From a virus: 64,000 bases of DNA. The translations under genes were made by a program, and so were the position numbers. The stretch is taken from IMG/VR virus record IMGVR_UViG_3300029414_000238, one strand, 5' to 3'. Below are positions 1,927 through 62,787 of this stretch, in pieces; position 1 is the stretch's first letter; each line of letters begins with the position of its first letter. The notes under the pieces are model-generated. The model was given only the letters and a program-made list of their open reading frames with translations, was not told the DNA's origin and did not search any database.

Positions 1927-2485
1927 TACGAAAAGAACACCGCTATTAGGTCAGAAATAAATAGCAGAGGTTTGCAGATATAAGGAGGATCGGAATGTGT
2001 ACTTTAAAGGATAAGTTAGTGGAATGTGGAGCATGTGTAGCAGCTGTAATTCTTGTGTTGGCAGTTTGTTATGGACTAAGTTGGATTGTAATATGTGGAG
2101 TTATTAAGCTGATTACGATGTGTTTTGGATTAACATTTAAGTGATCCATTGCAACCGGTATTTGGTTAATAATTTGTATTTTGAAAAGTATTTTTAATGT
2201 AACTGTTAAGAAATAAATAGGAGAAATGAGCTATGACAATATTAAATTTTATCATTGAGTGTTGGAAGAATTCTTGCGACGAAAAAATCAAAAGGAATTA
2301 TGTTGAATCCCTTGCTAAAGTGGCGGTTTCAGTGGCCATCATTATTATATCTGTTTTATTATATTTGCACATATGAAATGTATAACGGAAATGTATATTT
2401 TGGGGGAGGAGGGGTAAGTACAAACATAATTTTTAAAAAAGTAGCGCAAAGAAAGAATTCACTAATGCAGAAGGGGCGTAACAAT

Positions 2486-7454: not shown

Positions 7455-9239
7455 ATGAGTGGTTTACCATTTGATCCTATTATTATTGCGGTTGTCGCGG
7501 TCGTTGTGATCCTTATCGGCATACTTGCCAGCGGGTATGTCAAAGCGCCGGCAGACAAGGCATACATCATTTCCGGACTTAAGAAAGTTCCGAAGGTGTT
7601 AATTGGCCGGGCAGGAATTAAGATTCCTTTTCTGGAAAGAAAAGACGAACTTCTGTTAAAGCAGATCGGTATTGATATTAAAACCGGAGGCTATGTTCCA
7701 ACGAAAGATTTCATCGGTGTTGATATTGATGCGATTGCAAAAATCCGTCTGATTTCCATGCAGGATGTAGGCAAAGAGAAAACCTATACCAGAACAATCG
7801 TTGATGAGATTGTTGACGGCAGCAATACAAAAGATGGAGATAAAGAATATTCAACTCATACAGAAACTGTTACAATCAAGATTACAGAAGATATGGCGCG
7901 TGCGGCAATGCGGAATTTCCTTAATATGAAAGAATCCAACATTGTTGAAGCTTTACAGGATTCTTTACAGGGAAATATGAGAGAAATCGTTGGTACGCAG
8001 ACATTGCGTGCTTTGTGCCAGGATCGTAAATCTTTTGGTGATGAGGTTCAGAGCAAAGCGCAGCCGGATATGAATGCCCTCGGTGTATGGATCGAGTCCT
8101 GCAATATTCAGCGTATTGAGGACGAACAGGATCTGATCAATGCTCTTGGTATGGATAACATGGCTGCTATCCAGAAGAGTGCAAGCATTGCAAAGGCAGA
8201 GGCTGACAAAGACGTTGCGATTGCACAGGCGAAGGCAGCAAGAGAAGCAAATGATGCAAAAGTCGCCGCTGATACGGAAATTGCTGAGAAGCAGAACGAG
8301 CTTGCAATCAAAAAGGCAGAATTACAGCAGCTCTCTGACACAAAGAAGGCGATTGCGGATGCTGCTTATAAGATTCAGGAACAGGAACAGCGTAAAGCGA
8401 TTGAGACAGCAAAAGTTAATGCAGATATTGCAGAGCAGGAAAGAACTGTTGAACTTCGCGAGAAGGAAGCACAGGTTGCAGAACAGACACTTAATGCGAC
8501 GGTAAAGAAGCAGGCGGATGCAGATAAGTACAGCAGACAGCAGGCTGCAGAAGCAAATCTGATTGAAAAATCCCGTCAGGCTGATGCAGAAAAATATCAG
8601 CAGGAGAAGGAAGCAGAAATCCAAAAGATTAAGGCAGAGGCCGATAAGGAAGCGAAGAAAAAAGAAGCAGAAGGTATTCTTGCAATCAAGAGATCAGAAG
8701 CAGAAGGTATCGCCGCTGTAGGTAAAGCAGAAGCTCAGGCAATCGAAGCAAAAGGTATTGCAGAAGCTCAAGCAATGGAGAAAAAAGCAGAAGCTTATTC
8801 AAAGTATAACAAGGCTGCTGTTGCAGAAATGACGATCAAAATGCTTCCAGAGCTTGCAGCCAAAGTTGCTGAGCCGCTTGGACAGATTGACAAAATCACA
8901 ATCATCGGAGGCGGCGATGGCAGCAATGGTATCGAACAGGTTGCCGGGAATGTTCCTGTTGTTATGGCGAAGGTCTTTGAGAGTGTCAAAGAAGCTACAG
9001 GGATAGATCTGACAAGTATTGTTAATGCTGAGTCTTACGATGCGAAGGTTAACCGCAATGTTAATTTAACCGGTATCAAAGATACGGTGGCAATTTCCGG
9101 CGGATCAAAGAGTGATACTGACGCAGATAAAACCGAGAATTCCGGCATCGATTCTGATTTATCAGGAGAAAATGCAGAGGTCATCCGTTCTTTGGCAGAA
9201 AATGCTAATCAGGAATCAGCTGACAGTAATCTGGACTAA
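7455..9239 (+). CDS. flotillin-like SPFH/band-7 protein
   Basis: N-terminal TM helix (IIIAVVAVVVILIGILASGYV), an SPFH region, then a long Ala/Glu/Lys-rich coiled coil (AKAEADKDVAIAQAKAAREANDAKVAAD...), as in FloT/YuaG. The internal overlapping ORFs 8108-8624 are frame artefacts of this repeat. Confidence 0.75.
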   Translation: MSGLPFDPIIIAVVAVVVILIGILASGYVKAPADKAYIISGLKKVPKVLIGRAGIKIPFLERKDELLLKQIGIDIKTGGYVPTKDFIGVDIDAIAKIRLISMQDVGKEKTYTRTIVDEIVDGSNTKDGDKEYSTHTETVTIKITEDMARAAMRNFLNMKESNIVEALQDSLQGNMREIVGTQTLRALCQDRKSFGDEVQSKAQPDMNALGVWIESCNIQRIEDEQDLINALGMDNMAAIQKSASIAKAEADKDVAIAQAKAAREANDAKVAADTEIAEKQNELAIKKAELQQLSDTKKAIADAAYKIQEQEQRKAIETAKVNADIAEQERTVELREKEAQVAEQTLNATVKKQADADKYSRQQAAEANLIEKSRQADAEKYQQEKEAEIQKIKAEADKEAKKKEAEGILAIKRSEAEGIAAVGKAEAQAIEAKGIAEAQAMEKKAEAYSKYNKAAVAEMTIKMLPELAAKVAEPLGQIDKITIIGGGDGSNGIEQVAGNVPVVMAKVFESVKEATGIDLTSIVNAESYDAKVNRNVNLTGIKDTVAISGGSKSDTDADKTENSGIDSDLSGENAEVIRSLAENANQESADSNLD

Positions 9240-9339
9240 CAGAATATGTAATTTAAGACATATACCGGGGTACTTGCGTATTCTGGTATATGTCTTTTTA
9301 TGCTTTTATGGTGAGAGTTTTATTTTTGATCATGGCGAA

Positions 9340-9432
9340 ACGATACCAAAGAAAGTCCGGTTTGCAGTGTACGAAAAATGCAACCACCGGTGCAGTTTTT
9401 ACTTCGAAAAGATCGGACTGGATATGGCGTAA
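9340..9432 (+). pseudogene. internally deleted remnant of an HNH endonuclease gene (paralog of 46757-47191)
   Basis: KKVRFAVYEKCNHRC (the HNH start) is fused directly to YFEKIGLD (the HNH C-terminus; compare QFYFEKIGINID at 47120). Confidence 0.5.
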
Positions 9433-9482
9433 GTTTTCAAAAAATCTTTGACGATTTTTCAAAAGGCGCAATATGTATAGTG
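9432..9482 (+). promoter_or_regulatory. conserved promoter-like cassette, copy 2
   Basis: aagttttcaaaaaatctttgacgatttttcaaaaggcgcaatatgtatagtg. Confidence 0.55.
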
Positions 9483-9619
9483 TAAAGGTCATAAACCGAG
9501 CTGCCAGGGTTACCGGCTGGCAGAAAATCCTTTCGAAAAATGTTTACGTTCCGGGAAATCCCCGGAAAGGATAGTGGGTACGCAGCGCAAGTTATTCCGG
9601 GTTCGACTCCCGGATATCC
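9483..9619 (+). ncRNA. structured tRNA-like RNA element, family A copy 1 (candidate 5' leader or sRNA)
   Basis: Three hairpins: ctgccag-ggttaccgg-ctggcag, ccggg-aaat-ccccgg, and a T-arm-like ccgggTTCGActcccgg closed by ggata/tatcc. The second copy at 14513-14646 shows compensatory changes. Confidence 0.4.
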
Positions 9620-9658
9620 TTTTTCAAAATTGCAGGAAAAATGTGGAGGAAAAGAGAA

Positions 9659-9963
9659 TGGATGAACTGATCAAGAAACTTCGGATGTATGCAGACACAT
9701 ACAAAAAAGAACCAGCCGGACGGGAAGTTGAAGGTACCGTGGAATTGCTCGAAAATTCTGCAGATGCTTTGCAGGAAGCAGGGGAGGCTGTTCAAAAATT
9801 AAAGCAGAGATTTGTGGATGGAATAGATGTCCATTACCAGGGACATGATGCCGACGATTACATTGAGTGTCCTTTCTGCGGATACGAGGTTGCAGCGATC
9901 GACGATTACTGTGAGCTGCGCCCAAATCATTGTCCGAAATGTGGAACAAAGCTGATATACTAG
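9659..9963 (+). CDS. hypothetical protein with C-terminal zinc ribbon
   Basis: ATG 9659 follows GGAGGAAAAGAGA. The C-terminus reads CPFCGYEV...CPKCGTKLIY. The ORF-track start at 9574 lies inside the structured leader. Confidence 0.45.
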
Positions 9964-10315
9964 ATATAGGAGGCTGGCATGAAAGAATTGAGGAAGTTGT
10001 GCATGCACCCATTGTGCGATGCAGAGCCAAAAATGCATACGATTTACGAATATATCGGAAAAGCCGGGACGAAAGGTACGACAGTTTTGTGGTTCCTTGA
10101 GATCCCAAAAAAGGAGCCAAAGTGTATGGGATCAGTGAGGAAGACCATGTTTCTCCGTATATGGAAGGCATGGCATTCCGGTATGCAGAATTCAAACCAT
10201 ACATGATTGATGAGATTTACAGCAATGGATTCGTTGTCTGCCACGAGTGTTAGGATGAGACAAAAATGCGTGTCCAATTAACAAGAAGGAATATGCGGTA
10301 AGTAATGGAGATATT

Positions 10316-17355: not shown

Positions 17356-17574
17356 GTTGCGCCCCATTGGGTGCATGGGTTGAAATCTTTATGACCTTCT
17401 GAAAAGTGAGGGCATCTTAGTTGCACCCCCGCAAGGGATGTATGGGTTGAAATTCAATAGAAACAGATGCATTCGAAGGCGTTACAAGTTGCACCCCGCG
17501 AGGGGTGTATGGGTTGAAATTGCAGAAAGCTCAGGATTGGAAGGTTGCATCCTATGGGATGCATGGATTGAAAC
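17356..17574 (+). CRISPR. CRISPR array, 4 repeats and 3 spacers, I-C-like repeats
   Basis: gttgcgccccattgggtgcatgggttgaaat / gttgcacccccgcaagggatgtatgggttgaaat / gttgcaccccgcgaggggtgtatgggttgaaat / gttgcatcctatgggatgcatggattgaaac. Confidence 0.75.
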
Positions 17575-17600
17575 GAACATATTTGTTATTATTTATTATT

Positions 17601-18020: not shown

Positions 18021-18053
18021 GTTGTGCCCCTATGGGGTGCATGGGTAATAAGA
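18021..18053 (+). CRISPR. solo degenerate repeat-like hairpin in the cas5c 5' leader
   Basis: gttgtgcccctatggggtgcatgggtaataagag against the array repeat gttgcaccccgcgaggggtgtatgggttgaaat. Confidence 0.5.
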
Positions 18054-18060
18054 GAAAGGA

Positions 18061-18735
18061 ATGGAAAAAGAAAAAATGGGAGTGAAACTAAAAGTCTGGG
18101 GAGATTACGCATTGTTCACCAGACCAGAACTGAAAACTGAACGGTATACATACGATGTGATGACACCGTCGGCGGCTAGAGGAATTCTGGAATCTATCTA
18201 CTGGCATCCGGGACTTCGGTGGTATGTAGACAAGATTCATGTATTAAATCCGATTGCCACTACGAGCGTGAGAAGAAATGAACTTCTCAGTAAGATACCA
18301 AAGTCAAATATGCTGCAGGCATACAACGGCGGGGATGTGAAACTGTATAACTCGTCAAGAGACGATATTATCCAGAGGGCATCTGTTATTCTCCGGGATG
18401 TCTGCTATGTGATTGAGGCGCATTTTGAAATGACAGGGAAAGCGAGCCCAACAGACAGCCCGGCAAAGTTTATAAGTATCTTTAACAACAGGGCAAGAAA
18501 AGGGGCATGTTATTCGATGCCGTATTTTGGTGTAAGGGAATTCCCGGCACACTTTGAACTCTGCGAAGGAGATGAAAAGATCCCATCCTACTATGAAGGA
18601 CTTCCGGATAAAGATCTCGGGCTGATGCTTTATGATCTGGATTACTCCTGCGGTAGAGATATCCAGCCAATGTATTATCATGCGATTATGAAAAACGGCG
18701 TTATTGACGTTGGGAACAGTGAGGTGCTTCGATGA
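18061..18735 (+). CDS. cas5: Cas5c (Cas5d, type I-C)
   Basis: VWGDYALFTRPELKTERYTYDVMTPSAARGILESIYWHPGLRWYVDKIHVL is the Cas5d N-terminal signature; the gene overlaps cas8c by ATGA. Confidence 0.85.
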   Translation: MEKEKMGVKLKVWGDYALFTRPELKTERYTYDVMTPSAARGILESIYWHPGLRWYVDKIHVLNPIATTSVRRNELLSKIPKSNMLQAYNGGDVKLYNSSRDDIIQRASVILRDVCYVIEAHFEMTGKASPTDSPAKFISIFNNRARKGACYSMPYFGVREFPAHFELCEGDEKIPSYYEGLPDKDLGLMLYDLDYSCGRDIQPMYYHAIMKNGVIDVGNSEVLR

Positions 18736-20471
18736 TCCTTCAGTCACTTGTGAAATTATATGAAACACTTGCGGATCAGGGAAAAGTGTCCCGTCCTGGC
18801 TGGTGTAATGCAAAGGTATCCTATGCGGTGGTTTTAAACCATGATGGGACGATTAAAGATATTGTTTCCGTGAAACAGAAAGTGAAGAGAGGAAAGAAGA
18901 CTGTTGAAATTCCAATAATTATGCAGGTTCCAGAGATGGTCACCCGCGCTAACAACATTGCCTCCAGCTTTCTCTGCGAAAATGCAAAGTATCTCTTTGG
19001 GATTGACGAAAAGATGAGTTTGCGTACACTGGAATGTTTTAAGGCGGCAAAGAAAAAACATCTTGATATTCTTGATGTTGTGGATTCACCTGTAGCACAG
19101 ACGGTATGTAACTTTTTCCGTTCATGGGATCCGGAACAGGCGTTGGATCAACCGGCTGTTGCAAAACTTGCAGAAGAGTTTTATAAAGGCGGAAACCTCG
19201 TTTTTGAAGTAGATGGGGAATATGTGCATGATAATGAAGAAGTCCGCAGGGCATGGATGGATTACAGCAGTGTACCATATGAAATGGTAACTGGAAGATG
19301 CCTTATTACTGGAGAGGAAGCGGAGATTGCCCGCACGCACGGGAAAATCAAAGGAGTTCCGGGAGCACAGTCATCTGGCGCGTCGCTTGTATCATTTAAC
19401 GGAGCATCCCTTGAGTCTTATGAAAAAACACAGAGCTACAACGCGCCGATTAGCACCTATGCGGCGTATGCATATGTGACCGCGCTGAATTACTTGCTTT
19501 CTACGGACGGGTATCACAGCAAGGTAGGAGATTCCATGGTGGTTTTCTGGACAGATTCCGGGGATGTGGATGATGTGAGCAGACTGCGGAAGATGATGGG
19601 AAGCATCAATGAAAAGGATCACACCCCTACAGATACGGATGAAAAACTGTACGTCCTCTGCCTTGCACCAAATGCCGGGCGAATTGCAGTCCGGTTCTTC
19701 TATGAGGATGCGATCGGGGTAATCTGGGAAAACCTGTCCGAACATGCCAGTCGGATGAAGATTGTAAAACCAGTATTTGAGGATCAAGAATTTATCAATA
19801 TCTGGCAGATGCTCATGGAGACAGTCAACCAGAATCTTACAGATAAAATACCTGTCCCGCATATGTCAGCAATGACGTTACAGTCAGTCATTTCGGATAC
19901 ACCGTATCCGCAGAGTCTGTATGCAGGTGTGTTATCTCGTATCCGCGCGGAGCACAAAGGTGTTACTTACAGAAAAGCATCGATTATTAAAGCTTTTTTA
20001 ATAAAGAACTACAAATGGGAGGAAGGAAAAAATATGGAAGCATTAAATGAAGGCTGTAAGGATCGGGCATATATCCTTGGAAGACTGTTTGCGGTTATGG
20101 AAAAGGCACAGAAAGAAGCAGTTGGCAATATCAACCAGACAATTTGTGATAAGTTTTACAATTCCGCGTGCACAACACCAAGATCGATCTTTCCAGTACT
20201 GATCAGGCTATCTAACAGTCATTTAAGTAAGTTGAAACGGACAAAACCGGGGAGAGGATATTATTTTACAGCTAAAATGCAGGATTTAATGGATAAAATT
20301 CCGGTAACAGATGATGATCCGGGATTCCCGCGGCGTTTCTCATATGAGGATCAGGGTAAGTTTGCACTTGGTTATTATCATCAGATGCGGGCGGAATATA
20401 CAAGCAGTAAGTTAAAAGATAATGATTCAGAAGGTGATCAGACAAATGCAGAGAATATGGAGGAAAACTAA
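18732..20471 (+). CDS. cas8c: Cas8c (Csd1, type I-C large subunit)
   Basis: 579 aa; MILQSLVKLYETL is the typical Csd1 start; it lies between cas5 and cas7. Confidence 0.8.
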   Translation: MILQSLVKLYETLADQGKVSRPGWCNAKVSYAVVLNHDGTIKDIVSVKQKVKRGKKTVEIPIIMQVPEMVTRANNIASSFLCENAKYLFGIDEKMSLRTLECFKAAKKKHLDILDVVDSPVAQTVCNFFRSWDPEQALDQPAVAKLAEEFYKGGNLVFEVDGEYVHDNEEVRRAWMDYSSVPYEMVTGRCLITGEEAEIARTHGKIKGVPGAQSSGASLVSFNGASLESYEKTQSYNAPISTYAAYAYVTALNYLLSTDGYHSKVGDSMVVFWTDSGDVDDVSRLRKMMGSINEKDHTPTDTDEKLYVLCLAPNAGRIAVRFFYEDAIGVIWENLSEHASRMKIVKPVFEDQEFINIWQMLMETVNQNLTDKIPVPHMSAMTLQSVISDTPYPQSLYAGVLSRIRAEHKGVTYRKASIIKAFLIKNYKWEEGKNMEALNEGCKDRAYILGRLFAVMEKAQKEAVGNINQTICDKFYNSACTTPRSIFPVLIRLSNSHLSKLKRTKPGRGYYFTAKMQDLMDKIPVTDDDPGFPRRFSYEDQGKFALGYYHQMRAEYTSSKLKDNDSEGDQTNAENMEEN

Positions 20472-20472
20472 G

Positions 20473-21384
20473 ATGAGCACACCAATTAAGAACAGATATG
20501 ATTTCGTAGTATTATTCGACGTAGAGAATGGAAATCCGAACGGTGATCCGGATGCCGGAAATATGCCGAGAGTTGATCCAGAGACTGGCATCGGGCTTGT
20601 GACAGATGCCTGCATAAAGCGCAAGATCCGTAATTATGTGGAAACTGTAAAAGAAGATGCAGCCGGGTTCAAGATCTATATTAAAGAGGGGGTCCCGCTG
20701 AACCGGAGTGACCTTAAGGCAGTCGAAAGTCTTGGTATTGACGTCGGTGACGACAAAAATGCACTTGAAGATGTAAAGAAGCTGAAAAAGACAGATGAAG
20801 ATGTGGATCTTAAGCTCCGTGACTATATGTGTAGTAATTTCTATGATATCCGTACATTTGGTGCTGTCTTGACTACCTTTACAAAGGCGGCATTAAACTG
20901 TGGGCAGGTACGTGGCCCGGTACAGATTGGTTTTGCAAAAAGTATTGATCCTGTTTTCAGCCAGGATATTACTGTAACCAGAGTTGCAATCACAACGGAA
21001 AAGGATGCGGAAAAGAAAAATACAGAAATGGGAAGAAAGAGTATTATTCCTTATGGACTTTACCGTGTGGAGGGATATATTTCTGCTAATCTTGCCCGTA
21101 AGACCACCGGCTTTTCTGAAGACGATCTGGAACTGCTTTGGGAAGCAATCATTAACATGTTTGAGAATGACCATTCCGCAGCACGCGGGAAGATGGCAGT
21201 GCGTGAGCTCATCGTATTCAAGCATAACAGCGAGCTTGGCAATTGTCCATCGTACAAACTGTTTGAAACTGTTGATGTTAAGAAGAATGATGGTGTTGAG
21301 TTTCCTCGTAAATATTCCGATTATGCAGTGACTATTCATGAGGATGCGATTCCGGATGGCGTGACAATGACTCGCAAAATCTAA
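20473..21384 (+). CDS. cas7: Cas7c (Csd2, type I-C)
   Basis: MSTPIKNRYDFVVLFDVENGNPNGDPDAGNMPRVDPETGIGLVTDACIKRKIRNYV is the Csd2 signature. ATG 20473 sits 1 nt after the cas8c stop; the ORF-track start at 20422 is an artefactual extension. Confidence 0.85.
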   Translation: MSTPIKNRYDFVVLFDVENGNPNGDPDAGNMPRVDPETGIGLVTDACIKRKIRNYVETVKEDAAGFKIYIKEGVPLNRSDLKAVESLGIDVGDDKNALEDVKKLKKTDEDVDLKLRDYMCSNFYDIRTFGAVLTTFTKAALNCGQVRGPVQIGFAKSIDPVFSQDITVTRVAITTEKDAEKKNTEMGRKSIIPYGLYRVEGYISANLARKTTGFSEDDLELLWEAIINMFENDHSAARGKMAVRELIVFKHNSELGNCPSYKLFETVDVKKNDGVEFPRKYSDYAVTIHEDAIPDGVTMTRKI

Positions 21385-21634: not shown

Positions 21635-22346
21635 GCTACGCCCCATGGAGGGGCGTATGGATTGAAAATACCGCAACAATTAAAGGCAATGAAAATCTTG
21701 TACGCTACGCCCCATGGAGGGGCGTATGGATTGAAAATGATTGTTATTGTTTTTTATTCATGGAGAGGAAAGCTACGCCCCATGGAGGGGCGTATGGATT
21801 GAAAAGTAAGGTTTCGTCTCGAAGCCTTTATTCTGTTTTGCTGCGCCCCATGGAGGGGCGTATGGATTGAAATACCAAAATCTTTTGACATTCTTATAAA
21901 TGGTAACAGCTACGTCTTATGGGGTACGTATGGATTGAAATCATAATAATTGTAGAGATCTCAATACAAAATAAAGCTGCGTCTCATGGAATACGTATGG
22001 ATTGAAATGAAAAGGCGAGTTTGCGAAAGCAGATATTGGAATGTTGCGTCTCGTGGAGTACGTATGGATTGAAATTCCAACTTTAACTACATAACTATCC
22101 TGATAAACTTGCTGCACCCCATGGAGAGTGTATGGATTGAAATTTAAAAAATCATGGATAACATCTGCGATAAGACGTTGCACCTCGCTAGGGGTGTATG
22201 GGTTGAAATTTCCATAATCGGTAGCCAATTATTATCATTAGGTGTTGCACCCCATAGAGGGTGTATGGATTGAAATTATATAAAAATGATGAATATGTAA
22301 AAAAAATAAAAGAGTTACGCTCCATGGAGTGCGTATGGCTTGAAAC
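21635..22346 (+). CRISPR. CRISPR array, 11 repeats of 33 nt and 10 spacers of 33-37 nt, type I-C repeat family
   Basis: The first four leader-proximal repeats are identical (gctacgccccatggaggggcgtatggattgaaa); later repeats diverge progressively (..gtcttatggggtac.., ..gcaccccatagagggtg..). The period is 66-70 nt and the last repeat ends GAAAC. ORFs 21587-21870 and 21941-22228 are artefacts of the repeats. Confidence 0.9.
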
Positions 22347-31434: not shown

Positions 31435-32175
31435 ATGTTGGAAAAATACAGTTATGAATTGTGGAATGGAAATTGTCTGGAATTAATGAAATCTATTCCT
31501 GATAAATCAATAGATATGATTTTATGTGATCTGCCATATGGGACAACTAAGTGCAAATGGGATATCGTAATACCATTTAAACCAATGTGGGATCAATATA
31601 GTCGTATTGCAAAAGATAATGCTGCAATCGTATTGTTTGGACAGGAGCCATTTTCTTCTTTATTAAGGGTAAGCAATATCAGCGATTACAAGTATGATAT
31701 TTACTGGGAAAAAGAGCGGTTAACAAATATTAATCAGGTTAAACGGAGAGTTGGGAAAACTGTAGAGACAATATCTGTATTTTATAAAAAACAATGTACA
31801 TATAATCCTCAAATGATTAAGTATGAAGGAAAACTAAGGAAAAACAGGGTAAAAAATGGTAAACTCGGAAAACTTACAGATGAAAATGAAAAAAAAGTAA
31901 TTGAATATAATGATACTGGGTGGCGTTACCCTACGCAAGTTTGGAAATTTCAGAGGGATTGCCTAACTTCAAATTTGCATCCAACTCAAAAACCATTGCT
32001 TTTATGTGAAACGCTTGTCAAAACATTCTCTAATGAAGGTGATATTGTCCTGGATAATTGTATGGGGTCTGGAACAGTTGGTGTAGCATGCAAACTTCTA
32101 AATCGTAAATTTATTGGTATAGAACTTGAAGAGAACTATTTCAAAATTGCAAAGGAAAGGATTAGCCAAAATTGA
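31435..32175 (+). CDS. DNA methyltransferase (N4-cytosine or N6-adenine class, beta-type motif order)
   Basis: Motif IV DLPYG, then the QKP region, then motif I DNCMGSGT. Confidence 0.7.
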   Translation: MLEKYSYELWNGNCLELMKSIPDKSIDMILCDLPYGTTKCKWDIVIPFKPMWDQYSRIAKDNAAIVLFGQEPFSSLLRVSNISDYKYDIYWEKERLTNINQVKRRVGKTVETISVFYKKQCTYNPQMIKYEGKLRKNRVKNGKLGKLTDENEKKVIEYNDTGWRYPTQVWKFQRDCLTSNLHPTQKPLLLCETLVKTFSNEGDIVLDNCMGSGTVGVACKLLNRKFIGIELEENYFKIAKERISQN

Positions 32176-33992
32176 GAAAAGGACAGATTAAATTACTGGA
32201 AAAAGCAGAAAAAGAAGGATTTACAGAAGAACAGCTGGCTGTATTACGTGGTAATCAGATGTTATACACTTTAGATTATTATTACTTTTTGCTGAAGCGT
32301 GGTGTTTCTGCTTCTGTAATTAATGCAATCATCAAAGCTGGTGAAGGATGGGGAATGCATTCGTTTGGATTCCAGTTGATGGAATGTGGTTATTCATTGG
32401 AGGATATCCTTACATATATTGAGAAAAGCAAAAAGCTGTTACTTAATCATAATTATTTTTACGAAGAGATCATGACAGGGAAAAGTAAAAATGAAACTGA
32501 TGTGTCTTTGCGTAAAAGCTATGCAGAAACACTTATACAGATTCCCGAATTATTGAGTTGCCATGATCAATATATTACAAGGGCTGTCGAATTTGCAATC
32601 AATTCACGAATTTCAGTGAAAGATTTTATTGAGGAATTTTTCCCAAAGGAAGAGGATAGCTGGAAGGTCTTTAGAAACGGAAATTATAAAGATAGCCAGT
32701 ATACCGCTTTACTTTCGTTTTGGCGTAACCATATTCCACATTTATCAGACTTGTTATTGCCCAATGACAACAGTTTGTTTTACGAGCAGAAAGAAGTAGC
32801 TTTGGAAGATCAGATGAAACTTTTTATGGAAGCATGGAAAGCCCTTAACCATGTAACAGGGAAAGAACATTTCATTAAAATAAAAGACTGCCCCATGTAC
32901 TACAGGAGTATTGACATTAATAAGTCAGCAGTTAATATTTATCTGGCTTCGTCTTCTTATACAAATATTAACAAAGGCGAATTCCATTTTGATGTACCGG
33001 AAGTATCTATGAAACTGGTCATTTTCCATTCCGGTGGATATTACTATAAGGGTTTCAAAGACCGGCTGTTCCCGCTTTCCTTAAAGAAATTAAGTTCCAT
33101 ATGGAATGATTATGGAAATCTTGGAAAACAGGTGGTTACATTCATCCTTGGACATGCAATGGAAAAATTAAATGCCATGGTCATGAAGGATATCCTGCGG
33201 ACATTTGAAAAAGATAATTTTATGCTGCTTCCAATCAGACTTATCGACTGCCGGGATTCGTATAATTACAATCATCTGCTTCAAAAGAGGTGGGTTGCTG
33301 CGGATAAGATCAACTGGAACAGAACAGACGTCAACCTTGCTTACCTCGTAATTAAAAGTCTTCCGTACCTGGGACGTGAAAGCGATAAAAAACGATTATT
33401 ACAGACAAAAGATACATCCCTGCTTGATGTGGTGGATTCTTCCTTCTGGAAGAGGAGATGGAACAACAAATGTATTTCCACTTTCCTCGGATGCTTTATT
33501 GCAGGCGGTATCAGTGATGTGCCTGAAGACGGCGATCTGGATAATGTCAGAATCACAGCAGATGATTACATAAAAATGGCACACGAGATGCACCAAAAGG
33601 TTAAGCTTGGGTTCCATAGCTGGAAGAAACTTAAGGATGCGCATGACAAAATATCAAAGAAATACAAAAATCAACTTCACCGGGTGCATGTTCCAAAGAA
33701 CAGCAAGTTCAACCATCTGAGGGAACTGCTCCCGGAATCCTATGAATGGATCCGTACAGGCAGCCGTCTCCGCATGGAAGGTATTGAGATGGGACACTGT
33801 GTGAATTCTTACTGGCAATACATAAACCAGGATACCTGTGCCATATATTCCTTTACAGCAGGAGAAAAACGCTACACTGCAGAATTCCGTGTTGGCAGTA
33901 ACGGGAAATATACGGTCCGGCAGATCCAGTCAAAGTATGACAGGGGATGTCCGGCTTCTGTCCGGAAACAGGTGGGTAAGTTGATTTCCTAA
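32172..33992 (+). CDS. large hypothetical protein (606 aa), possibly PcfJ-like
   Basis: Overlaps the MTase stop. The C-terminal GIEMGHCVNSYWQ region is reminiscent of PcfJ-like plasmid proteins; this identification is weak. Confidence 0.4.
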   Translation: MRKGQIKLLEKAEKEGFTEEQLAVLRGNQMLYTLDYYYFLLKRGVSASVINAIIKAGEGWGMHSFGFQLMECGYSLEDILTYIEKSKKLLLNHNYFYEEIMTGKSKNETDVSLRKSYAETLIQIPELLSCHDQYITRAVEFAINSRISVKDFIEEFFPKEEDSWKVFRNGNYKDSQYTALLSFWRNHIPHLSDLLLPNDNSLFYEQKEVALEDQMKLFMEAWKALNHVTGKEHFIKIKDCPMYYRSIDINKSAVNIYLASSSYTNINKGEFHFDVPEVSMKLVIFHSGGYYYKGFKDRLFPLSLKKLSSIWNDYGNLGKQVVTFILGHAMEKLNAMVMKDILRTFEKDNFMLLPIRLIDCRDSYNYNHLLQKRWVAADKINWNRTDVNLAYLVIKSLPYLGRESDKKRLLQTKDTSLLDVVDSSFWKRRWNNKCISTFLGCFIAGGISDVPEDGDLDNVRITADDYIKMAHEMHQKVKLGFHSWKKLKDAHDKISKKYKNQLHRVHVPKNSKFNHLRELLPESYEWIRTGSRLRMEGIEMGHCVNSYWQYINQDTCAIYSFTAGEKRYTAEFRVGSNGKYTVRQIQSKYDRGCPASVRKQVGKLIS

Positions 33993-36898: not shown

Positions 36899-37585
36899 AT
36901 GAAAATTATTTATTCTAAATATACATTTGAAGAAGTCCACAATACAAGAAGAAAATGGTTATCTGATGAACCTGGTACATCGCGTGAAAAAATAAAAATT
37001 GTATTACGATCCTTTCCATTTTTAGTTTATTTTTTATTTTGTGAGTATATCCTTCTCATTAACATATTTGATTATTCACAGCCGCTGGCTTATAGAAATG
37101 TTATGAGGAAAATAATGAACCTTGATATTTATAAAAGCGCAGGGGTTTATAAGAGGCTTTCAATCGATATACTATCGTACGTATGCTATATGAGCGCTAT
37201 TGGCATTGCATTATGTCTAATAGCGATACTAATTCGCAAAATATATAAAAATATTGTATGCAGGATTATACCAATCAGTACGCCATGTATAGATAGAAAT
37301 AAGAAAAATCGATACGGGTATGATAAAACAATTGATATTGAAAAATTACTTGAAAGACAGAAAATGTTAAAAGAATTTATCAGTGATCATAATGCTACAT
37401 TTACTCTAACAGGGAACGTGTTAAAAGTGACAATTTGTGAAGATGGATATTGCGAAGAAAAGTCTTTCCAGTTATCAGAGACAGAAGCAGAAAACATTCG
37501 GGAAAATGGGACATTTGATTTTTCTTATCTTGATGAAGAATGGGAAAAAATAATGTCGTACATACGAGGAGAAGAGAAAATATGA
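36899..37585 (+). CDS. hypothetical membrane protein
   Basis: 228 aa with two TM segments. Confidence 0.4.
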   Translation: MKIIYSKYTFEEVHNTRRKWLSDEPGTSREKIKIVLRSFPFLVYFLFCEYILLINIFDYSQPLAYRNVMRKIMNLDIYKSAGVYKRLSIDILSYVCYMSAIGIALCLIAILIRKIYKNIVCRIIPISTPCIDRNKKNRYGYDKTIDIEKLLERQKMLKEFISDHNATFTLTGNVLKVTICEDGYCEEKSFQLSETEAENIRENGTFDFSYLDEEWEKIMSYIRGEEKI

Positions 37586-38160
37586 ACAGTGAAATATTTA
37601 GAGTAGGTCAAACCTACAGTTTCATGGGTTACGATTGGACGGCCTGTGATCTTGTTAATGATGGTAAAACCCTTGTGATTCAGTCCCATGGTGTAACCCA
37701 TGGGGAATGGCCGGGTTTTGTAATGCCGCAGTTCGGCAACGGGAATTTTTATGCAGCAGATATTGATGGCGAGGATATTAGTGCCTACGATGACAAGATG
37801 CAGACACTCTACGATGCCATCAAGGATGCTGAGGATTCATCCGCTTCCTATGGTAAGGGATTGTTTCTTATTAGCAAAGAAAAAGCCAATTTTACGAAAT
37901 GTGGAGAACCTGGTTCCAAAAATTACTGGCAGGCACTGAAGACAGCAGCGGAAAACGCCCGTTCGTTCTGGGCTACCTACTGCGCGTGGCTTGGTACTGT
38001 CGACGACAGCCACAATGCGTGGTATGTTCACTCGAATGGCTACGTCTATAGCTACGGCAATCAGAGCAGCGACTTTGTTGTCGCGCCGGCTTTCAATCTC
38101 GACTTGTCCAAAGTTGAGGTTGTTGAAAATCAAATTGTCAAAATAAGGTTAGAAAGGTGA
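37582..38160 (+). CDS. hypothetical protein, tandem paralog 1
   Basis: GYDWTACDLVNDGKTLVIQSHGVTHGEWPGFVMPQFGNGNFYAADIDGEDISAYDDKMQTLYDAIK is about 85% identical to the next gene. Confidence 0.5.
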   Translation: MNSEIFRVGQTYSFMGYDWTACDLVNDGKTLVIQSHGVTHGEWPGFVMPQFGNGNFYAADIDGEDISAYDDKMQTLYDAIKDAEDSSASYGKGLFLISKEKANFTKCGEPGSKNYWQALKTAAENARSFWATYCAWLGTVDDSHNAWYVHSNGYVYSYGNQSSDFVVAPAFNLDLSKVEVVENQIVKIRLER

Positions 38161-38165
38161 AAAAT

Positions 38166-38783
38166 ATGAATAGTCAAATTACAAAAAATAACAATGTTTT
38201 AGAACTCGGAAAAACATACCAATTTGCCGGTTATAAATGGACAGCCTGTGAACTGATCAATAAAGGTAAAACTCTTGTGATCCAGTCTCATGGTGTAACC
38301 CATGGCGCATGGCCGGGATATGTAATGCCGCAGTTCGGCAACGGGAATTTTTATGCAGCAGATATTGATGGCGAGGATATTAGTGCCTACGATGACAAGA
38401 TGCAGACACTCTACGATGCCATCAAGGAGGCTGAGGATTCATCCGCTCCCTATAGTAAGGGATTGTTTCTTATTAGCAAAGAAAAAGCCGGTTTTACGGA
38501 ATGGCGTGAACCCGGCTCTGGAAATTACTGGCAGGCTTTGAAAGAGGCTGCGATGAATTATCAGTCGTTCGGGGCTGCCGACGGCATCGCGTCGCTCGGT
38601 ACTGTCAACGGCAGCAACAACGCGTGGTATGTCTACTCGGATGGCTACGTCTACAACGACGAAAATCAGGACTACGACTTTGTTGTCGCGCCCGCTTTTA
38701 ATCTCGATTTATCCAAAATAGAGATTGTTGGGGACGAGATTATCATTATGCATAAAGAAAATTTTAAAGATGAAGAAAAATAA
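38166..38783 (+). CDS. hypothetical protein, tandem paralog 2
   Basis: GYKWTACELINKGKTLVIQSHGVTHGAWPGYVMPQFGNGNFYAADIDGEDISAYDDKMQTLYDAIK. Confidence 0.5.
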   Translation: MNSQITKNNNVLELGKTYQFAGYKWTACELINKGKTLVIQSHGVTHGAWPGYVMPQFGNGNFYAADIDGEDISAYDDKMQTLYDAIKEAEDSSAPYSKGLFLISKEKAGFTEWREPGSGNYWQALKEAAMNYQSFGAADGIASLGTVNGSNNAWYVYSDGYVYNDENQDYDFVVAPAFNLDLSKIEIVGDEIIIMHKENFKDEEK

Positions 38784-38819
38784 TATAATGAATTACGTTT
38801 TAAATTTATGGCGAAAAAT

Positions 38820-38837
38820 CCACAGGCTTGCCTGTGG
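38820..38837. repeat. 18-bp perfect palindromic hairpin CCACAGGCTTGCCTGTGG, left copy
   Basis: An identical copy sits at 40769-40786; the pair brackets the TnpB-like gene and neither is followed by a U-tract. Confidence 0.6.
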
Positions 38838-38928
38838 GATGAAAGCTACATTTTTCACTTACTTGTTTCAACAGTTGGACACATAAGTGAAACTACAGTG
38901 ATCAAATACATTGAGGAGCAGAAAATAC

Positions 38929-40539
38929 ATGGATGCTGACGAGTACAAAAAACTTCTGAAAAAATTTCATAAACTTTCTGACCGGCATATCCTGGTCGCT
39001 GAGGCGGATATGTCCTATCCTGATGTGCAGAAGGTTGTAAATCTCTCCGACAGGATCCGCAAAGCCGGCAATGAGCTTGTAGGTGTCATGAAAAAGAATT
39101 ACGAACAGCTCATGCGTACCAAAAAGTACCGCAAGCTGCTTCAGCTGTATGGCTCCACTGAGGACAAAAACAAACGCAAAACATATGCCGGACAGCTCAA
39201 CGGAATGCAGGAACAGTACAACGTCACATGGGATTTCTGCCGGGTTTCAATGATACCCATTGGCAAGAAGTACGGCATTGATGCCATATTTGCCCTCGCA
39301 AAAGCCGAGGACGTGTGGCGAGGCGTTGAAAAATGCCTTTGCGGGAATGGAAAAACGCTTCATTTCTCCAAATATGGGGACCTGCCATGCATCAGGGCGA
39401 AGCAGATCAACCGCGGCATTCCGATGTCCGTAAAAAACAATGAACTGCAGTTTAAGCTGGGGAAATTAGTTTTCGGGATACAGGTCAAAGACCGGTTCCA
39501 GACAGACGAAGTCAATGCCGTCCTGGATTACCTTGCACAGCCGGAAGTCATAGACAACAAGGCAGTAAAGACTCTTCAGGATGAAGCGTGCTGTATCAGC
39601 ACGTACCGGCCTTGCTACGCAACGCTCGTACCGAAATTCATCCGTTGGAAATACAGGGTATACCTGCATCTCGTCATCGAAGGAAAGGCAAAACCGAAGT
39701 ACGACAGTTCCGGCAATCCACGGCATAAATACGGCAGGGGCGTCATTGGCGCTGATATCGGCATGCAGACGGTAGTCTATACTTCCGATACAGAGACAGG
39801 ACTTAAAAACTTATCGGAAAGAGGCAACAGCATACAGAAATCCGAACGTCTGGAAAGACTGTATTACCGCGCCATGGACAGGAGCAGACGCGCTACTAAT
39901 CCACAGAACTATAATGATAATGGTACTGTTAAAAAGGGTAAAAAGACTTGGAATTATTCCAATCACTATAAAAAACTGAAGGCAAAACATGCAGAACTCT
40001 GCCGCATAAATGCAATCAACAGGCAGCTTGCCATAAATGAGGATGCAAACCACCTGCGGAGCCTTGGAGATATATTTGTCACGGAACCAAAAAATGCAGC
40101 CAGACTCATGAAACGGGCAAAAGAGACAACTGTTAATGACAAAGGCAAGATCAACAGAAAGAAACGTTTTGGAAAGTCGATAAAGAACCGGTGCCCGGGC
40201 GGTTTCCAGGCTGCCGTGGAAAACAAGTTCAAAACATCCGGCGGTACATACATAGAGGTACCCAATCATTACAGGGCAAGCCAGTATGACCACACGGCAG
40301 ATGATTACATAAAAAAGAAGCTGTCCGACAGGATGTATAAACTTACAGACGGGACACTGGTACAAAGGGACTGGTACTCTTCATTCCTGTTGTACTGCTA
40401 CAATTACAAAACTAATGATATAGATAAAAAGAAATGCGTGGCAGAGTTTAAAAAATGCTACAGCATGGAAAAGGAATTAATTGAATGGATCAAAAAACAT
40501 AAGATCAAAGTGCTGAACAGCGGAATTAAAACCGCTTGA
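38929..40539 (+). CDS. TnpB-like RuvC-fold protein (IS200/IS605 OrfB / Cas12-ancestor family) with degenerate zinc finger
   Basis: RuvC-I-like GVIGADIGMQTVVYTSD, a candidate RuvC-II E in IFVTEPKNAARLMKR, and KSIKNRCPGGFQAAVENKFKTSGGTYIEVPNHYRASQ aligning with the TnpB KSISDAGWGEFVRQLEYKA...VVKVDPFFPSSQ block. LSDRMYKLTDGTLVQRDWYSSFLL aligns with the l.lsdR.f.C..CG...dRDhNAAiNIl (RuvC-III) block, but the Cys pairs are replaced. The WED-like segment GIPMSVKNNELQFKLGKLVFGIQVKDRF matches TnpB G.P.FKsk...l..kiG.vk. GAGGAG RBS before ATG 38929. Confidence 0.55.
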   Translation: MDADEYKKLLKKFHKLSDRHILVAEADMSYPDVQKVVNLSDRIRKAGNELVGVMKKNYEQLMRTKKYRKLLQLYGSTEDKNKRKTYAGQLNGMQEQYNVTWDFCRVSMIPIGKKYGIDAIFALAKAEDVWRGVEKCLCGNGKTLHFSKYGDLPCIRAKQINRGIPMSVKNNELQFKLGKLVFGIQVKDRFQTDEVNAVLDYLAQPEVIDNKAVKTLQDEACCISTYRPCYATLVPKFIRWKYRVYLHLVIEGKAKPKYDSSGNPRHKYGRGVIGADIGMQTVVYTSDTETGLKNLSERGNSIQKSERLERLYYRAMDRSRRATNPQNYNDNGTVKKGKKTWNYSNHYKKLKAKHAELCRINAINRQLAINEDANHLRSLGDIFVTEPKNAARLMKRAKETTVNDKGKINRKKRFGKSIKNRCPGGFQAAVENKFKTSGGTYIEVPNHYRASQYDHTADDYIKKKLSDRMYKLTDGTLVQRDWYSSFLLYCYNYKTNDIDKKKCVAEFKKCYSMEKELIEWIKKHKIKVLNSGIKTA

Positions 40540-40624
40540 CTATATGTTCGTAGGGAGACTGACTATGCTTCCTTGTCGCCAGACAGAAATTTACTGAAAA
40601 ACAACTAGCTTTCTTTACATAATA

Positions 40625-40652
40625 ATGTGGCCGTAGGGCTGCATGGTAATAA
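40625..40652 (+). repeat. CRISPR-repeat-like hairpin downstream of the TnpB-like gene
   Basis: gtggccgtagggctgcatggtaataaag against the cas5c-leader pseudo-repeat gtgcccctatggggtgcatgggtaataagag; both share a hairpin plus tgcatgg(g)taataa(g)ag. Confidence 0.35.
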
Positions 40653-40768
40653 AGTCCTTGCTTAAAACAGACTATACCTGTATTCCAAAGCCTATGACAA
40701 TTGAACCGCTAAAGTCCGATTGTATACGAATGGTGTACGATTACAGGCAAAACTTGAGAGCAAGAACC

Positions 40769-40786
40769 CCACAGGCTTGCCTGTGG
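40769..40786. repeat. 18-bp perfect palindromic hairpin CCACAGGCTTGCCTGTGG, right copy
   Basis: Identical to the copy at 38820-38837. Confidence 0.6.
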
Positions 40787-40929
40787 AAGTAGTCAGTTAT
40801 GCCGTATTAAACGATTGTCCTCCTGGAACAACGACATATTTTTTTGTTGAAAAAATGTTCAGAAGAAAAATCAAATGAGAATATTAGAGATAACATTCTT
40901 AAATCAAGTAACACTTATAGTTTCATGGA

Positions 40930-57304: not shown

Positions 57305-57396
57305 GTTGCATCCCTTATGGGATGTATGGGTTGAAATGCAATCAGGCTGCGGATGCTACCGGCTTGTTGCGCTTTATGAGGCGCATGGATGGAAAT
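57305..57396 (+). CRISPR. mini-array: repeat - 28-nt spacer - degenerate repeat
   Basis: gttgcatcccttatgggatgtatgggttgaaat ... gttgcgctttatgaggcgcatggatggaaat. Confidence 0.6.
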
Positions 57397-61731: not shown

Positions 61732-62787
61732 ATGTCTTCAGTTAACTGGGGCGGCAATCACGGAAGTGCAAAATGCAGCAAAAAAGATCATATCCGCGGA
61801 GTAAATCTTTTAAAGCATTGTGATCAGACGTTCCGAGCTGATCCAACAAAGCAGCACAGCAATATCGAGATTGATCCGTCAAAGTCATATCAGAACCAAA
61901 ACTTCACAGGAATGTCATGGAAGGAATCAAGGGAAAAATGGGAAAAACGTCTTGTGGAACTAGATAGAACAACAAATACAAACAAAAGGGATGACCGGGT
62001 TGAAATGACAAGTCTGGAAATGCCGGTACCGCTTGGAATGACAAATGAAAAAGCAAAGGAGTTGTTTCAAGATTTTTACGATATGTGCCGGGAAAAATTC
62101 GGGGATGAGAATATCATCAGCGCAACAAGCCACTTTGATGAGATCGCTCCTTACACGGATGCGAAAGACGGAATGATTAAAGTATCCAGACCTCACATTC
62201 ACATTCAGGTTGTTCCGGAGGTAAATGGAAAATTAAGCAACAAGGATTTCTCTTCCCTGACCAATATCCTGAAAATGAACCAGGCAGTTGAAAAGCTGTG
62301 CAACGAAAAGTACCACGTAAGATTTAACACAGGGGAAACCCCAAGGCGGCAGAGTACGGAACATCTGAAAAAGAATTCCCGGTATGCAGAGAAGCTTACA
62401 AAGGAAGTAAACCAGAGACAGGAATATATGAAAAATATAATCCTTGATGACGGACGGACCGCGGAAGATGATTTTATGGATGGCGGTGATGGATCGGTTG
62501 TAAATGAGGAAAAGAATAAAATTCCAGAAGAGTTGGTGAAGCAGAGAGATGATGCTTACAGAGAGAAAAATGAACAGGGAAAAATTCTTAAGCAGATGCA
62601 GGAGGAGAATGAAAGATTAAAACGGGAAATCAAGGAACGTGACTACAAAAGGAAATGCATCGAAAAAGGGATTGAGTTGCAGAAAAACGGGGAATCGATA
62701 CGTGAAGAATTGCATTCACTTTTAAGTAATCTTGAGGAAACAGGACGGGAGGAACTTGATTTTACGGAAGATCTTGACAGATCCTGA
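61732..62787 (+). CDS. MobV-family (Mob_Pre / plasmid recombination enzyme) relaxase
   Basis: N-terminal GGNHGSAKCSKKDH..R and the HxDE...PHxHxxVVP motif (SHFDEIAPYTD...SRPHIHIQVVPEVNGKLS) match pMV158 MobM (VHLDESTPHMHMGVVPFENGKLS). The C-terminus is a coiled coil. Confidence 0.7.
   Translation: MSSVNWGGNHGSAKCSKKDHIRGVNLLKHCDQTFRADPTKQHSNIEIDPSKSYQNQNFTGMSWKESREKWEKRLVELDRTTNTNKRDDRVEMTSLEMPVPLGMTNEKAKELFQDFYDMCREKFGDENIISATSHFDEIAPYTDAKDGMIKVSRPHIHIQVVPEVNGKLSNKDFSSLTNILKMNQAVEKLCNEKYHVRFNTGETPRRQSTEHLKKNSRYAEKLTKEVNQRQEYMKNIILDDGRTAEDDFMDGGDGSVVNEEKNKIPEELVKQRDDAYREKNEQGKILKQMQEENERLKREIKERDYKRKCIEKGIELQKNGESIREELHSLLSNLEETGREELDFTEDLDRS

Follow-up and report, generated by a model that had tools for sequence, protein, structure and literature searches.

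A probable tnpA-deleted IS200/IS605-family element with a zinc-finger-less TnpB in an IMG/VR virus record

The tnpB locus and the ends of the element

This work concerns a gene for a TnpB-type nuclease and the insertion sequence around it, located in a stretch of 64,000 nucleotides (nt) of the IMG/VR virus record IMGVR_UViG_3300029414_000238; the whole stretch is called the window here and all coordinates refer to it. The gene, tnpB, runs on the + strand from an ATG at 38929 to a stop at 40539 (an alternative start, TTG, lies at 38911) and encodes 536 amino acids (aa). It is framed by two identical hairpins, preceded by the remnant of a tnpA gene and followed by a structured 3' region. It is very probable that this locus represents a non-autonomous, tnpA-deleted element of the IS200/IS605 family (IS605 type), in which TnpB, the two ends and the RNA region have stayed intact and in which, as we infer from characterised systems, TnpB would function with an omega-RNA.

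The palindrome CCACAGGCTTGCCTGTGG occurs exactly twice in the window, at 38820-38837 and 40769-40786, and no further copy was found there at up to three mismatches (chance expectation 0.02). Each copy folds as a 7-bp stem with a CTTG loop, and since the central TT is identical in both, the two stand in direct orientation. They lie 91 nt 5' of the ATG and 229 nt 3' of the stop, in agreement with the distances of about 90 and 230 bp given in the initial annotation of this DNA, which had likened them to the subterminal hairpins of IS200/IS605 elements. The likeness is borne out by 74 related loci fetched from isolate genomes, metagenome-assembled genomes (MAGs) and viral contigs. In all of these a hairpin of the same design is found about 180-230 nt past the tnpB stop, followed by GAG(C/T)AGTCAG, and the homology between loci ends exactly after GTCAG, which places the right end (RE) in the window at 40796. 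The RE hairpin (40769..40786, + strand), recognised through the search for hairpin copies and the comparison of loci, keeps a fixed position 10 nt ahead of the point where the flanks diverge, and the 10-nt tail AAGTAGTCAG (40787-40796) closes the element. The left end (LE; 38802..38846, + strand) is made up of AAATTTATGGCGAAAAAT, the hairpin CCACAGG-CTTG-CCTGTGG (38820-38837) and the conserved GATGAAAGC, and is conserved in register in more than 40 loci; in relatives the upstream hairpin is preceded by GTTATAAATTTGTGGCGAAAAC.

Across more than 50 loci from several phyla, the stems of both hairpins covary around a constant CTTG loop, with paired changes such as CCACACGCTTGCGTGTGG and CCATAGGCTTGCCTATGG among the LE variants and CCACGGGCTTGCCCGTGG and CCACTGGCTTGCCAGTGG among the RE variants, so that the hairpin structure itself must be under selection. 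Similar subterminal hairpins on the same strand, with no terminal inverted repeats, fit the pattern of IS200/IS605 elements; the hairpins are the LE and RE structures of the element, whose extent can be put, from the sequence comparison, at about 38802-40796. It is extremely improbable that the palindromes are instead generic repetitive extragenic palindromic (REP)-like sequences or terminators, or that the hairpin in the 3' region is a CRISPR-type repeat of the type I-C system encoded in the same window, a point to which we return below. The palindromes do look terminator-like on the minus strand, but there are just two of them in 64 kb, they travel with the gene at fixed positions in the related loci, and their stems change in a compensatory manner, and on these grounds the REP-like or terminator reading was ruled out.

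Directly 5' of the LE stands the pentanucleotide GTTTT (38797..38801, + strand), for which the family consensus is GTTAT. In about 45 independent left flanks, conservation starts at the G of this motif and the preceding base is variable; GTTAT adjoins the LE in these different flanks and no flanking direct repeat is seen. Between the proposed left end and the LE hairpin there are 18 nt, or 23 nt when counted from the first base of the conserved GTTAT block. The GTTTT of the window is the probable target site of TnpA and the probable target-adjacent motif (TAM) of TnpB, the TAM of the family probably being GTTAT. The five nucleotides at 38797..38801 can be assigned to either the flank or the element, and the exact left cleavage point and the TAM are placed here by analogy with characterised systems. 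The similarity between the two putative cleavage pentanucleotides, GTTAT and GTCAG, would fit the manner in which an IS200/IS605 TnpA recognises its cleavage sites. Of about 48 independent right flanks, three (those of the window and of loci L008 and L009) start with TTAT directly after GTCAG, somewhat above the expectation from base composition.

The initial annotation had stated that no TnpA is present. This is correct for an intact gene, but a remnant of a Y1 HUH transposase gene is recognisable at 38860..38939 (+ strand) by alignment with the full-length locus L063 and by translation: its last 24 codons, STVGHISETTVIKYIEEQKIHGC followed by a stop, survive at 38868-38939, and the stop overlaps the tnpB start. 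Relative to L063, which is 90% identical, the window copy carries an internal deletion of about 560 bp that has removed a ribbon-helix-helix (RHH)-like open reading frame (ORF) and most of tnpA. In relatives, the interval between the upstream hairpin and tnpB ranges from 140 to 1250 nt, and the longer intervals hold two ORFs, one of 56 aa with an RHH-like pattern and one of 143 aa, the tnpA. The tnpA ORF of L063 (2580-3011) matches Pfam Y1_Tnp at E=8.6e-37 and NCBIfam NF033573 (IS200/IS605 family transposase) with 140 bits, and a Y1_Tnp ORF lies upstream of tnpB in both L063 and L021. The 56-aa ORF, RHH-like by its pattern alone, has no match in Pfam or NCBIfam. The order in full-length members is thus LE hairpin, RHH (Arc-like) ORF, Y1 TnpA, TnpB, structured 3' RNA region and RE hairpin. 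The Y1 HUH transposase that characterises IS200/IS605 elements is lacking in the window copy and present in its full-length relatives; together with the surviving 24 codons, this identifies the window copy as a deletion derivative of an IS200/IS605 member. Two further loci, L004 and L005, have different deletions in the same region, and tnpA loss is therefore recurrent. In a Butyrivibrio MAG (L021, 2596-4611), tnpA and tnpB are fused into a single ORF of 671 aa with no intervening stop.

In elements of the IS605 family, RHH ('Arc') genes are reported to act as repressors of the promoter of the transposon (bioRxiv 10.64898/2026.09.24.754181). The full-length relatives of the window element resemble these Arc-IS605 elements in carrying the RHH-like ORF just inside the LE, upstream of tnpA and tnpB. 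They differ in that all three genes are co-directional, whereas in many Arc-IS605 elements arc and tnpA diverge from tnpB; in the window copy the RHH-like ORF has been deleted altogether.

Seventy genomic loci belong to Lachnospiraceae, Erysipelotrichaceae (Sharpea, Catenibacterium, Kandleria, Holdemania) and Spirochaetes (Bullifex, Treponema), with 73-90% protein identity. Several copies occur per genome, and many sit at contig ends or form element-only contigs of about 2.5 kb, which is the signature of an active repeat. The family is large. Words in common with the protein were found in more than 2900 clusters at 90% identity, and E<=1e-3 was reached by at least 1903 clusters formed at 50% identity; none of 120 among the clusters listed carries a precomputed Pfam domain. 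One full copy of 81% identity (L006) is found on a 4.4-kb contig binned to a MAG of a Methanomethylophilaceae archaeon; a binning artefact is more likely here than a transfer between domains.

The TnpB protein and its missing zinc finger

The protein scores below every threshold of the curated models Pfam OrfB_IS605 and OrfB_Zn_ribbon and NCBIfam NF040570, and a single-protein search of PDB sequences gave no match; its detection as a TnpB needed a profile of 60 sequences and structure prediction. Among the PHROGs, phrog_506 ('transposase') matches aa 230-496 at E=2.7e-17. In an alignment of 60 full-length relatives with 28-57% identity, D276, E386, N324, G332, G415, A450, S451 and S484 are invariant, and Q479, R480, D481, Q452, Y453 and H455 are conserved in at least 90%. 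The three catalytic residues of a RuvC nuclease are found in the window protein within the motifs GADIG (D276), VTEP (E386) and QRD (D481). The initial annotation had aligned the product block by block with TnpB, and both this alignment and the conservation of the D-E-D residues are confirmed in these relatives.

A search of PDB with the profile of this alignment found 9J09 (E=2.7e-9) as well as a designed, TnpB-like nuclease guided by RNA (E=2.9e-7). The former is Cas12n (PMC12216341), and the aligned blocks comprise GxDxG (RuvC-I), xxE (RuvC-II), the KRFGKS/ASQ bridge and RD (RuvC-III). An AlphaFold2 model built from the same alignment reached a pLDDT of 94.9 and a pTM of 0.85 and shows the WED-REC-RuvC architecture of solved TnpB structures. 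In a Foldseek comparison with PDB, the two best matches were ISFba1 TnpB (8IAZ, E=1.6e-12, TM 0.70 target-normalised) and ISDra2 TnpB (8H1J); a second ISDra2 TnpB structure, 8EXA, ranked ninth, Cas12f, Cas12p, Cas12m, Fanzor2 and Cas12k followed at lower ranks, and the best 40 were all TnpB, Cas12 or Fanzor proteins. Relatives found by tblastn, with 28-36% identity over about 90% of the length, are annotated as ISCbt1, ORFB IS605-like or TnpB, and BLASTP against WP_025774705.1, a protein of a C. botulinum plasmid named 'RNA-guided endonuclease TnpB family protein' by PGAP, gave E=5e-49. The tie of the window protein to NF040570 is transitive, through three relatives of about 30% identity whose scores on this model are 120.9, 98 and 54 bits against a cutoff of 100. 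Fold, profile and relatives together identify the protein as a TnpB-type RuvC nuclease whose D-E-D triad is intact. By analogy with characterised systems, it would cleave DNA in an RNA-guided and TAM-dependent manner.

The closest described proteins are the OrfB/TnpB of ISCbt1-type elements from C. botulinum plasmids (WP_025774705.1), the Clostridioides phages phiCD211 and AR1086-1, and Geobacillus virus E3 (ORFA+ORFB). They align with the window protein over the full length (28-36% identity, E down to 1e-57) and share the block KASQY(D/N)H...KKxLSxR...(I/V)QRDxYS(A/S)FL, the same D-E-D residues and the lack of a C4 zinc finger; in Geobacillus virus E3 an IS200-like ORFA (Y1 TnpA) lies immediately upstream of ORFB. 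The window protein is about 55 aa longer than the ISCbt1-type proteins compared, with an extra helical insert at about aa 190-235 and a longer N-terminus, and it falls below all Pfam and NCBIfam TnpB thresholds, whereas these relatives reach 54-121 bits on NF040570. With the characterised ISDra2 (8H1J/8EXA) and ISFba1 (8IAZ) TnpBs it shares the overall fold (Foldseek E of about 1e-12, TM 0.61-0.70 target-normalised), the position of the gene on the 3' side of an IS605-type element, and a structured RNA region from the stop to the RE with a pseudoknot beside the guide position. It differs from them in sequence (13-14% identity), in size (536 versus about 400 aa) and in having no zinc-finger TNB module.

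The initial annotation had noted that the zinc finger between RuvC-II and RuvC-III is replaced by HTADD...LTDG. The absence is real, as the site reads SQYDHTADD...LTDG with no cysteine ligands, but it does not represent a loss in this gene, because the C4 zinc finger (TNB) is absent from the whole clade, including the ISfinder-type ISCbt1 OrfB and the TnpB named by PGAP. The tblastn relatives likewise carry the shared block without the four cysteines, and in the profile alignment the cysteines of the Cas12n motif SQTCSECG...CAYCG fall opposite D, T and other non-cysteine residues of the family. The zinc finger is thus ancestrally absent in the clade, and its absence is not peculiar to the window gene. 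Large TnpB branches without a zinc finger have been published, and inactivity was not inferred for them (Altae-Tran et al. 2023, PMC10691335).

The suggestion of the initial annotation that the nuclease is catalytically altered is not upheld. According to this explanation, the loss of the zinc finger would change or end cleavage and leave RNA-guided binding in place, and it could draw on the lack of cysteine ligands between RuvC-II and RuvC-III as well as on the failure of standard TnpB hidden Markov models to find the protein. We regard it as very unlikely, given that the D-E-D residues are kept in the 60 relatives at 28-57% identity, that the zinc-finger-less state is ancient and common to TnpA-linked, evidently mobile ISCbt1-type elements, that the loss in the published branches (PMC10691335) was described with no inference of inactivity, and that the AlphaFold2 model has a confident beta-hairpin at the zinc-finger position (the equivalent hairpin spans aa 450-480). 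As the D-E-D triad is intact, nothing points to catalytic alteration.

Two further groups of nucleases invite comparison. Cas12n (type V-N, 9J09; PMC12216341) is the best PDB match of the profile, through RuvC-I, RuvC-II, the bridge region and RuvC-III, and Cas12f ranks just below TnpB by fold. Unlike these, the window gene has no CRISPR array or adaptation genes beside it and is accompanied by transposon ends and a tnpA remnant instead; Cas12n also keeps a CxxC...CxxC motif that the window protein lacks. The clade RIIIr-4 is alike in having no C4 zinc finger, in some RHH-linked members and in its occurrence in viruses and mobile elements, and it is described as having a histidine in place of the RuvC-III aspartate (PMC10691335). 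Membership of this clade was considered and not adopted, since the window family keeps QRD, with D481 conserved in at least 90%, and is set apart by that description.

A structured 3' region and its CRISPR-like hairpin

The region from the tnpB stop to the RE (40540..40796, + strand), which measures 257 nt in the window and 200-257 nt in the family, is more conserved than the coding sequence and is a putative omega-RNA scaffold. RNAalifold folds 52 distinct sequences of it into 55 pairs in nine helices. Across these sequences 98.8% of the pair cells are paired, and 18 pairs are changed on both sides, with 161 such cells; when the pairing is slid by 1-3 columns, 28-50% are paired and at most five pairs have compensatory changes, and none of 500 shuffles reaches the observed values. 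The window sequence on its own gives a folding z of -2.75. About ten G-U wobble pairs are conserved; read from the opposite strand they would become A-C mismatches, which makes the structure specific for the tnpB sense (+) strand.

The outermost helix joins TTGACT(G/A)T, about 20 nt past the stop, to the 8 nt that close the element, G(C/T)AGTCAG, and alternates between G-C and A-U (25 versus 23 sequences). Its 5' strand lies within the loop of another hairpin, GGGAG...CTTCC, whose stem is 100% paired and changes from A-U to C-G in 11 sequences; helix and hairpin together make a pseudoknot at the end of the scaffold. In window coordinates, all on the + strand, the stem of this pseudoknot is at 40553-40557/40568-40572, and covariation supports the pairing of its loop CTGACTAT (40559-40566) with the terminal GTAGTCAG (40789-40796). 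The consensus fold further contains helix 2 (40573-40586), helix 3 (40591-40649), which encloses helix 4 (40625..40643, GUGGCC-GUAG-GGCUGC), and the long helices 5-8 (40654-40767). Helix 4 has seven pairs, two of them with compensatory changes, and is a family-wide feature.

The initial annotation had proposed the 3' region as the place where an omega-RNA or guide would be encoded, and the region does have the properties of such a scaffold, being covarying, pseudoknotted, sense-strand-specific and terminated at the RE. In comparison with characterised TnpB omega/reRNAs, the putative scaffold of the window lies wholly inside the 3' untranslated region of 200-257 nt. It fits an omega/reRNA scaffold whose guide would begin at 40797, and by analogy with characterised TnpB systems alone, the predicted guide is TTATGCCGTATTAAACGATT (40797..40816, + strand), flanking DNA outside the RE that has no second match in the window. 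A scan for promoters and terminators found nothing above background that would set the ends of the RNA.

Within this region the initial annotation had pointed out a hairpin resembling a CRISPR repeat. The resemblance exists, as the 28-mer at 40627-40654, which is unique in the window and spans helix 4 together with the 3' strand of helix 3, has its best other match just upstream of cas5c (18024-18051) with a local score of 16, a value reached by 0/100 shuffled queries. This match and the terminator-like minus strand of the palindromes make up the case for the REP or CRISPR explanation rejected above. However, the hairpin is helix 4 of the scaffold, which is kept in genomes of several phyla whatever their CRISPR content, and when the I-C repeat is compared with the family consensus of this stretch, the score is 9, no better than chance. 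A CRISPR repeat as a family feature was accordingly discarded, the likeness being limited to the sub-lineage. We treat it as a local coincidence of this sub-lineage or, at most, an unexplained curiosity, and not as a functional CRISPR feature.

The type I-C genes themselves comprise cas5c (18061-18735), cas8c/Csd1 (18732-20471) and cas7 (20422-21384). Short clusters of degenerate I-C repeats are situated on both sides of these Cascade genes (17356-17575, 22177-22276 and 57305-57337), and a lone type I-C repeat-like sequence is situated directly 5' of cas5c at 18021-18051. No cas3 and no cas1/2/4 were found among the ORFs scanned, in a search of the window that was not exhaustive. The set could be a Cas3-less system borne by a mobile element.

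Insertion site, mobility and biological meaning

At least 12 metagenomic contigs share this insertion, with the same left flank, the same GTTTT and an identical deletion in tnpA. In contigs with the identical left flank, three unrelated right flanks begin exactly after GTCAG, namely TTATGCCG..., AATATCGA... and ACAATGGA... (right junctions at 40796/40797 in the window and at 5474 in L076, 7847 in L077, 3054 in L095, 3516 in L093 and 6162 in L082). The right end is a mosaic or recombination breakpoint, with the predicted guide differing accordingly. The left flank at 38400-38801 (401 nt) is 100% identical to that of L076 and L077, whereas the element (38802-40796) is just 95.7% identical; this contrast, as measured between the window and L076, places the element at a mosaic junction. 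L093 carries a different variant of the element at the same site, similar to that of L005 and with another deletion junction. The contrast in identity and the L093 variant suggest replacement or gene conversion between copies.

How such an element would move can be outlined from the characterised IS608, ISDra2 and Geobacillus IS605 systems. A TnpA provided in trans would mobilise the top strand in single-stranded form ('peel and paste'), both excising and inserting it; its cuts would fall after the GTTAT-like target that precedes the LE and, on the right side, after GTCAG. The partner of TnpB would be the omega-RNA derived from the RE, the guide of which would be the first 16-20 nt or so of the right-flanking DNA, and TnpB bound to it would cleave GTTAT-adjacent sites matching the guide. 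Such sites would be those that had lost the element, and their cleavage would favour its retention. A possible source of TnpA in trans is seen in L076, where a second, canonical IS605-type pair (Y1_Tnp and OrfB_IS605, with a weak Cas12f1-like_TNB match) lies a few kb downstream at 8212-10059.

Several observations weigh against the interpretation as an IS200/IS605 element with intact functional parts. No intact tnpA is encoded anywhere in the 64-kb window, and present-day mobility of this copy therefore needs a helper elsewhere. An empty site, whose joint would read GAATTACGTTTT directly followed by TTATGCCG, AATATCGA or ACAATGGA, was not found: the exact 20-mer of the right flank had 0 matches in viral contigs, the gapped pattern of left and right flank for the site of L002 had 0 matches, searches by way of the neighbouring proteins and homologues of these reached only occupied sites or contigs diverging elsewhere, and the six metagenome contigs with the 28-mer of the left flank are all occupied. 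In two copies at the same site, L081 and L082, tnpB is disrupted, a sign of ongoing decay in part of the lineage. Single-protein searches of Pfam and NCBIfam gave no match to a TnpB model even at E<=1, and Rfam holds no family matching the 3' region.

Some of these points could also be claimed for domestication, which the initial annotation had raised. In this case a transposase-less copy, fixed at one plasmid- or phage-like site, would serve the host element as an RNA-guided nuclease or repressor, in a TldR-like or defence-like role, and would have ceased to behave as a selfish insertion sequence. The presence of the same insertion and tnpA deletion in at least 12 related contigs with no empty site seen is in line with this, as is the type I-C Cascade operon in the same window. 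Compared with two copies at the same site, tnpB also has a ratio of nonsynonymous to synonymous substitution (dN/dS) of 0.12 at dS = 0.12 and has therefore been kept under purifying selection since the deletion of the tnpA region; such selection is, however, also explained by TnpB homing alone. The catalytic triad, both ends and the RE boundary are intact, as is typical of mobile copies, and near-identical members of the family are multi-copy and mobile across phyla. The sequence at the guide position varies among the related contigs and has no other match in the window, and the disrupted tnpB of L081 and L082 also argues against a retained host function. Domestication is thus a very unlikely explanation and an unneeded one for a family that is multi-copy and spread over phyla.

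Another possibility, to which we attach a low probability, is that the element belongs to a zinc-finger-less sub-branch with a zinc-independent target-binding module, and that selection keeps TnpA-less copies at a fixed site, marking and perhaps producing, through RNA-guided breaks at the right end, a module-exchange junction of plasmid- or phage-like elements. It is based on the joining of one left flank to three right flanks, each with a different guide. A functional link of the Cas3-less type I-C Cascade to the element via the repeat-like helix 4 would be a further variant of it.

Regarding the surroundings of the insertion, two tandem paralogous genes (37540-38160 and 38157-38783; 206 and 208 aa, with weak phrog_9958 matches) lie directly upstream; the second has relatives of two forms, of 199 aa and of roughly 300 aa, and divergence sets in about 50 nt ahead of the insertion site. 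Eight copies of a 28-nt promoter-like cassette, TTTGACGATTTTTNAAANGNCGCAATAT, are present on the + strand (6660, 9447, 13577, 14477, 17678, 17940, 41072 and 45484; 0 expected by chance); among the genes they precede are cas5c and the DUF5052 gene next after the element. The cassette has the look of a regulatory module shared within the host mobile element. The window also encodes a Mob_Pre relaxase (61732-62787), a PcfJ-like protein (32172-33992) and a DNA methyltransferase (2255-4309), and has few PHROG matches; no structural phage genes were detected among the ORFs scanned. It looks more like a mobilisable plasmid or an integrative and conjugative element than a tailed phage, although related contigs are classified as viral.

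The IS200/IS605 element in the window is a copy of a very common mobile gene of gut bacteria, whose TnpB is divergent and zinc-finger-less and otherwise canonical. The absence of the zinc finger and the existence of RHH-bearing IS605 elements are both already in the literature, and the understanding of how IS605, TnpB and omega-RNA work is unchanged. The family is abundant, also on phage- and plasmid-like contigs, yet it goes undetected by Pfam and NCBIfam and its members are mostly called 'hypothetical protein'. With the boundaries, the catalytic residues and a covariation-supported RNA scaffold given here, the family becomes annotatable, and in practical terms it offers a ready candidate for testing a zinc-free TnpB.

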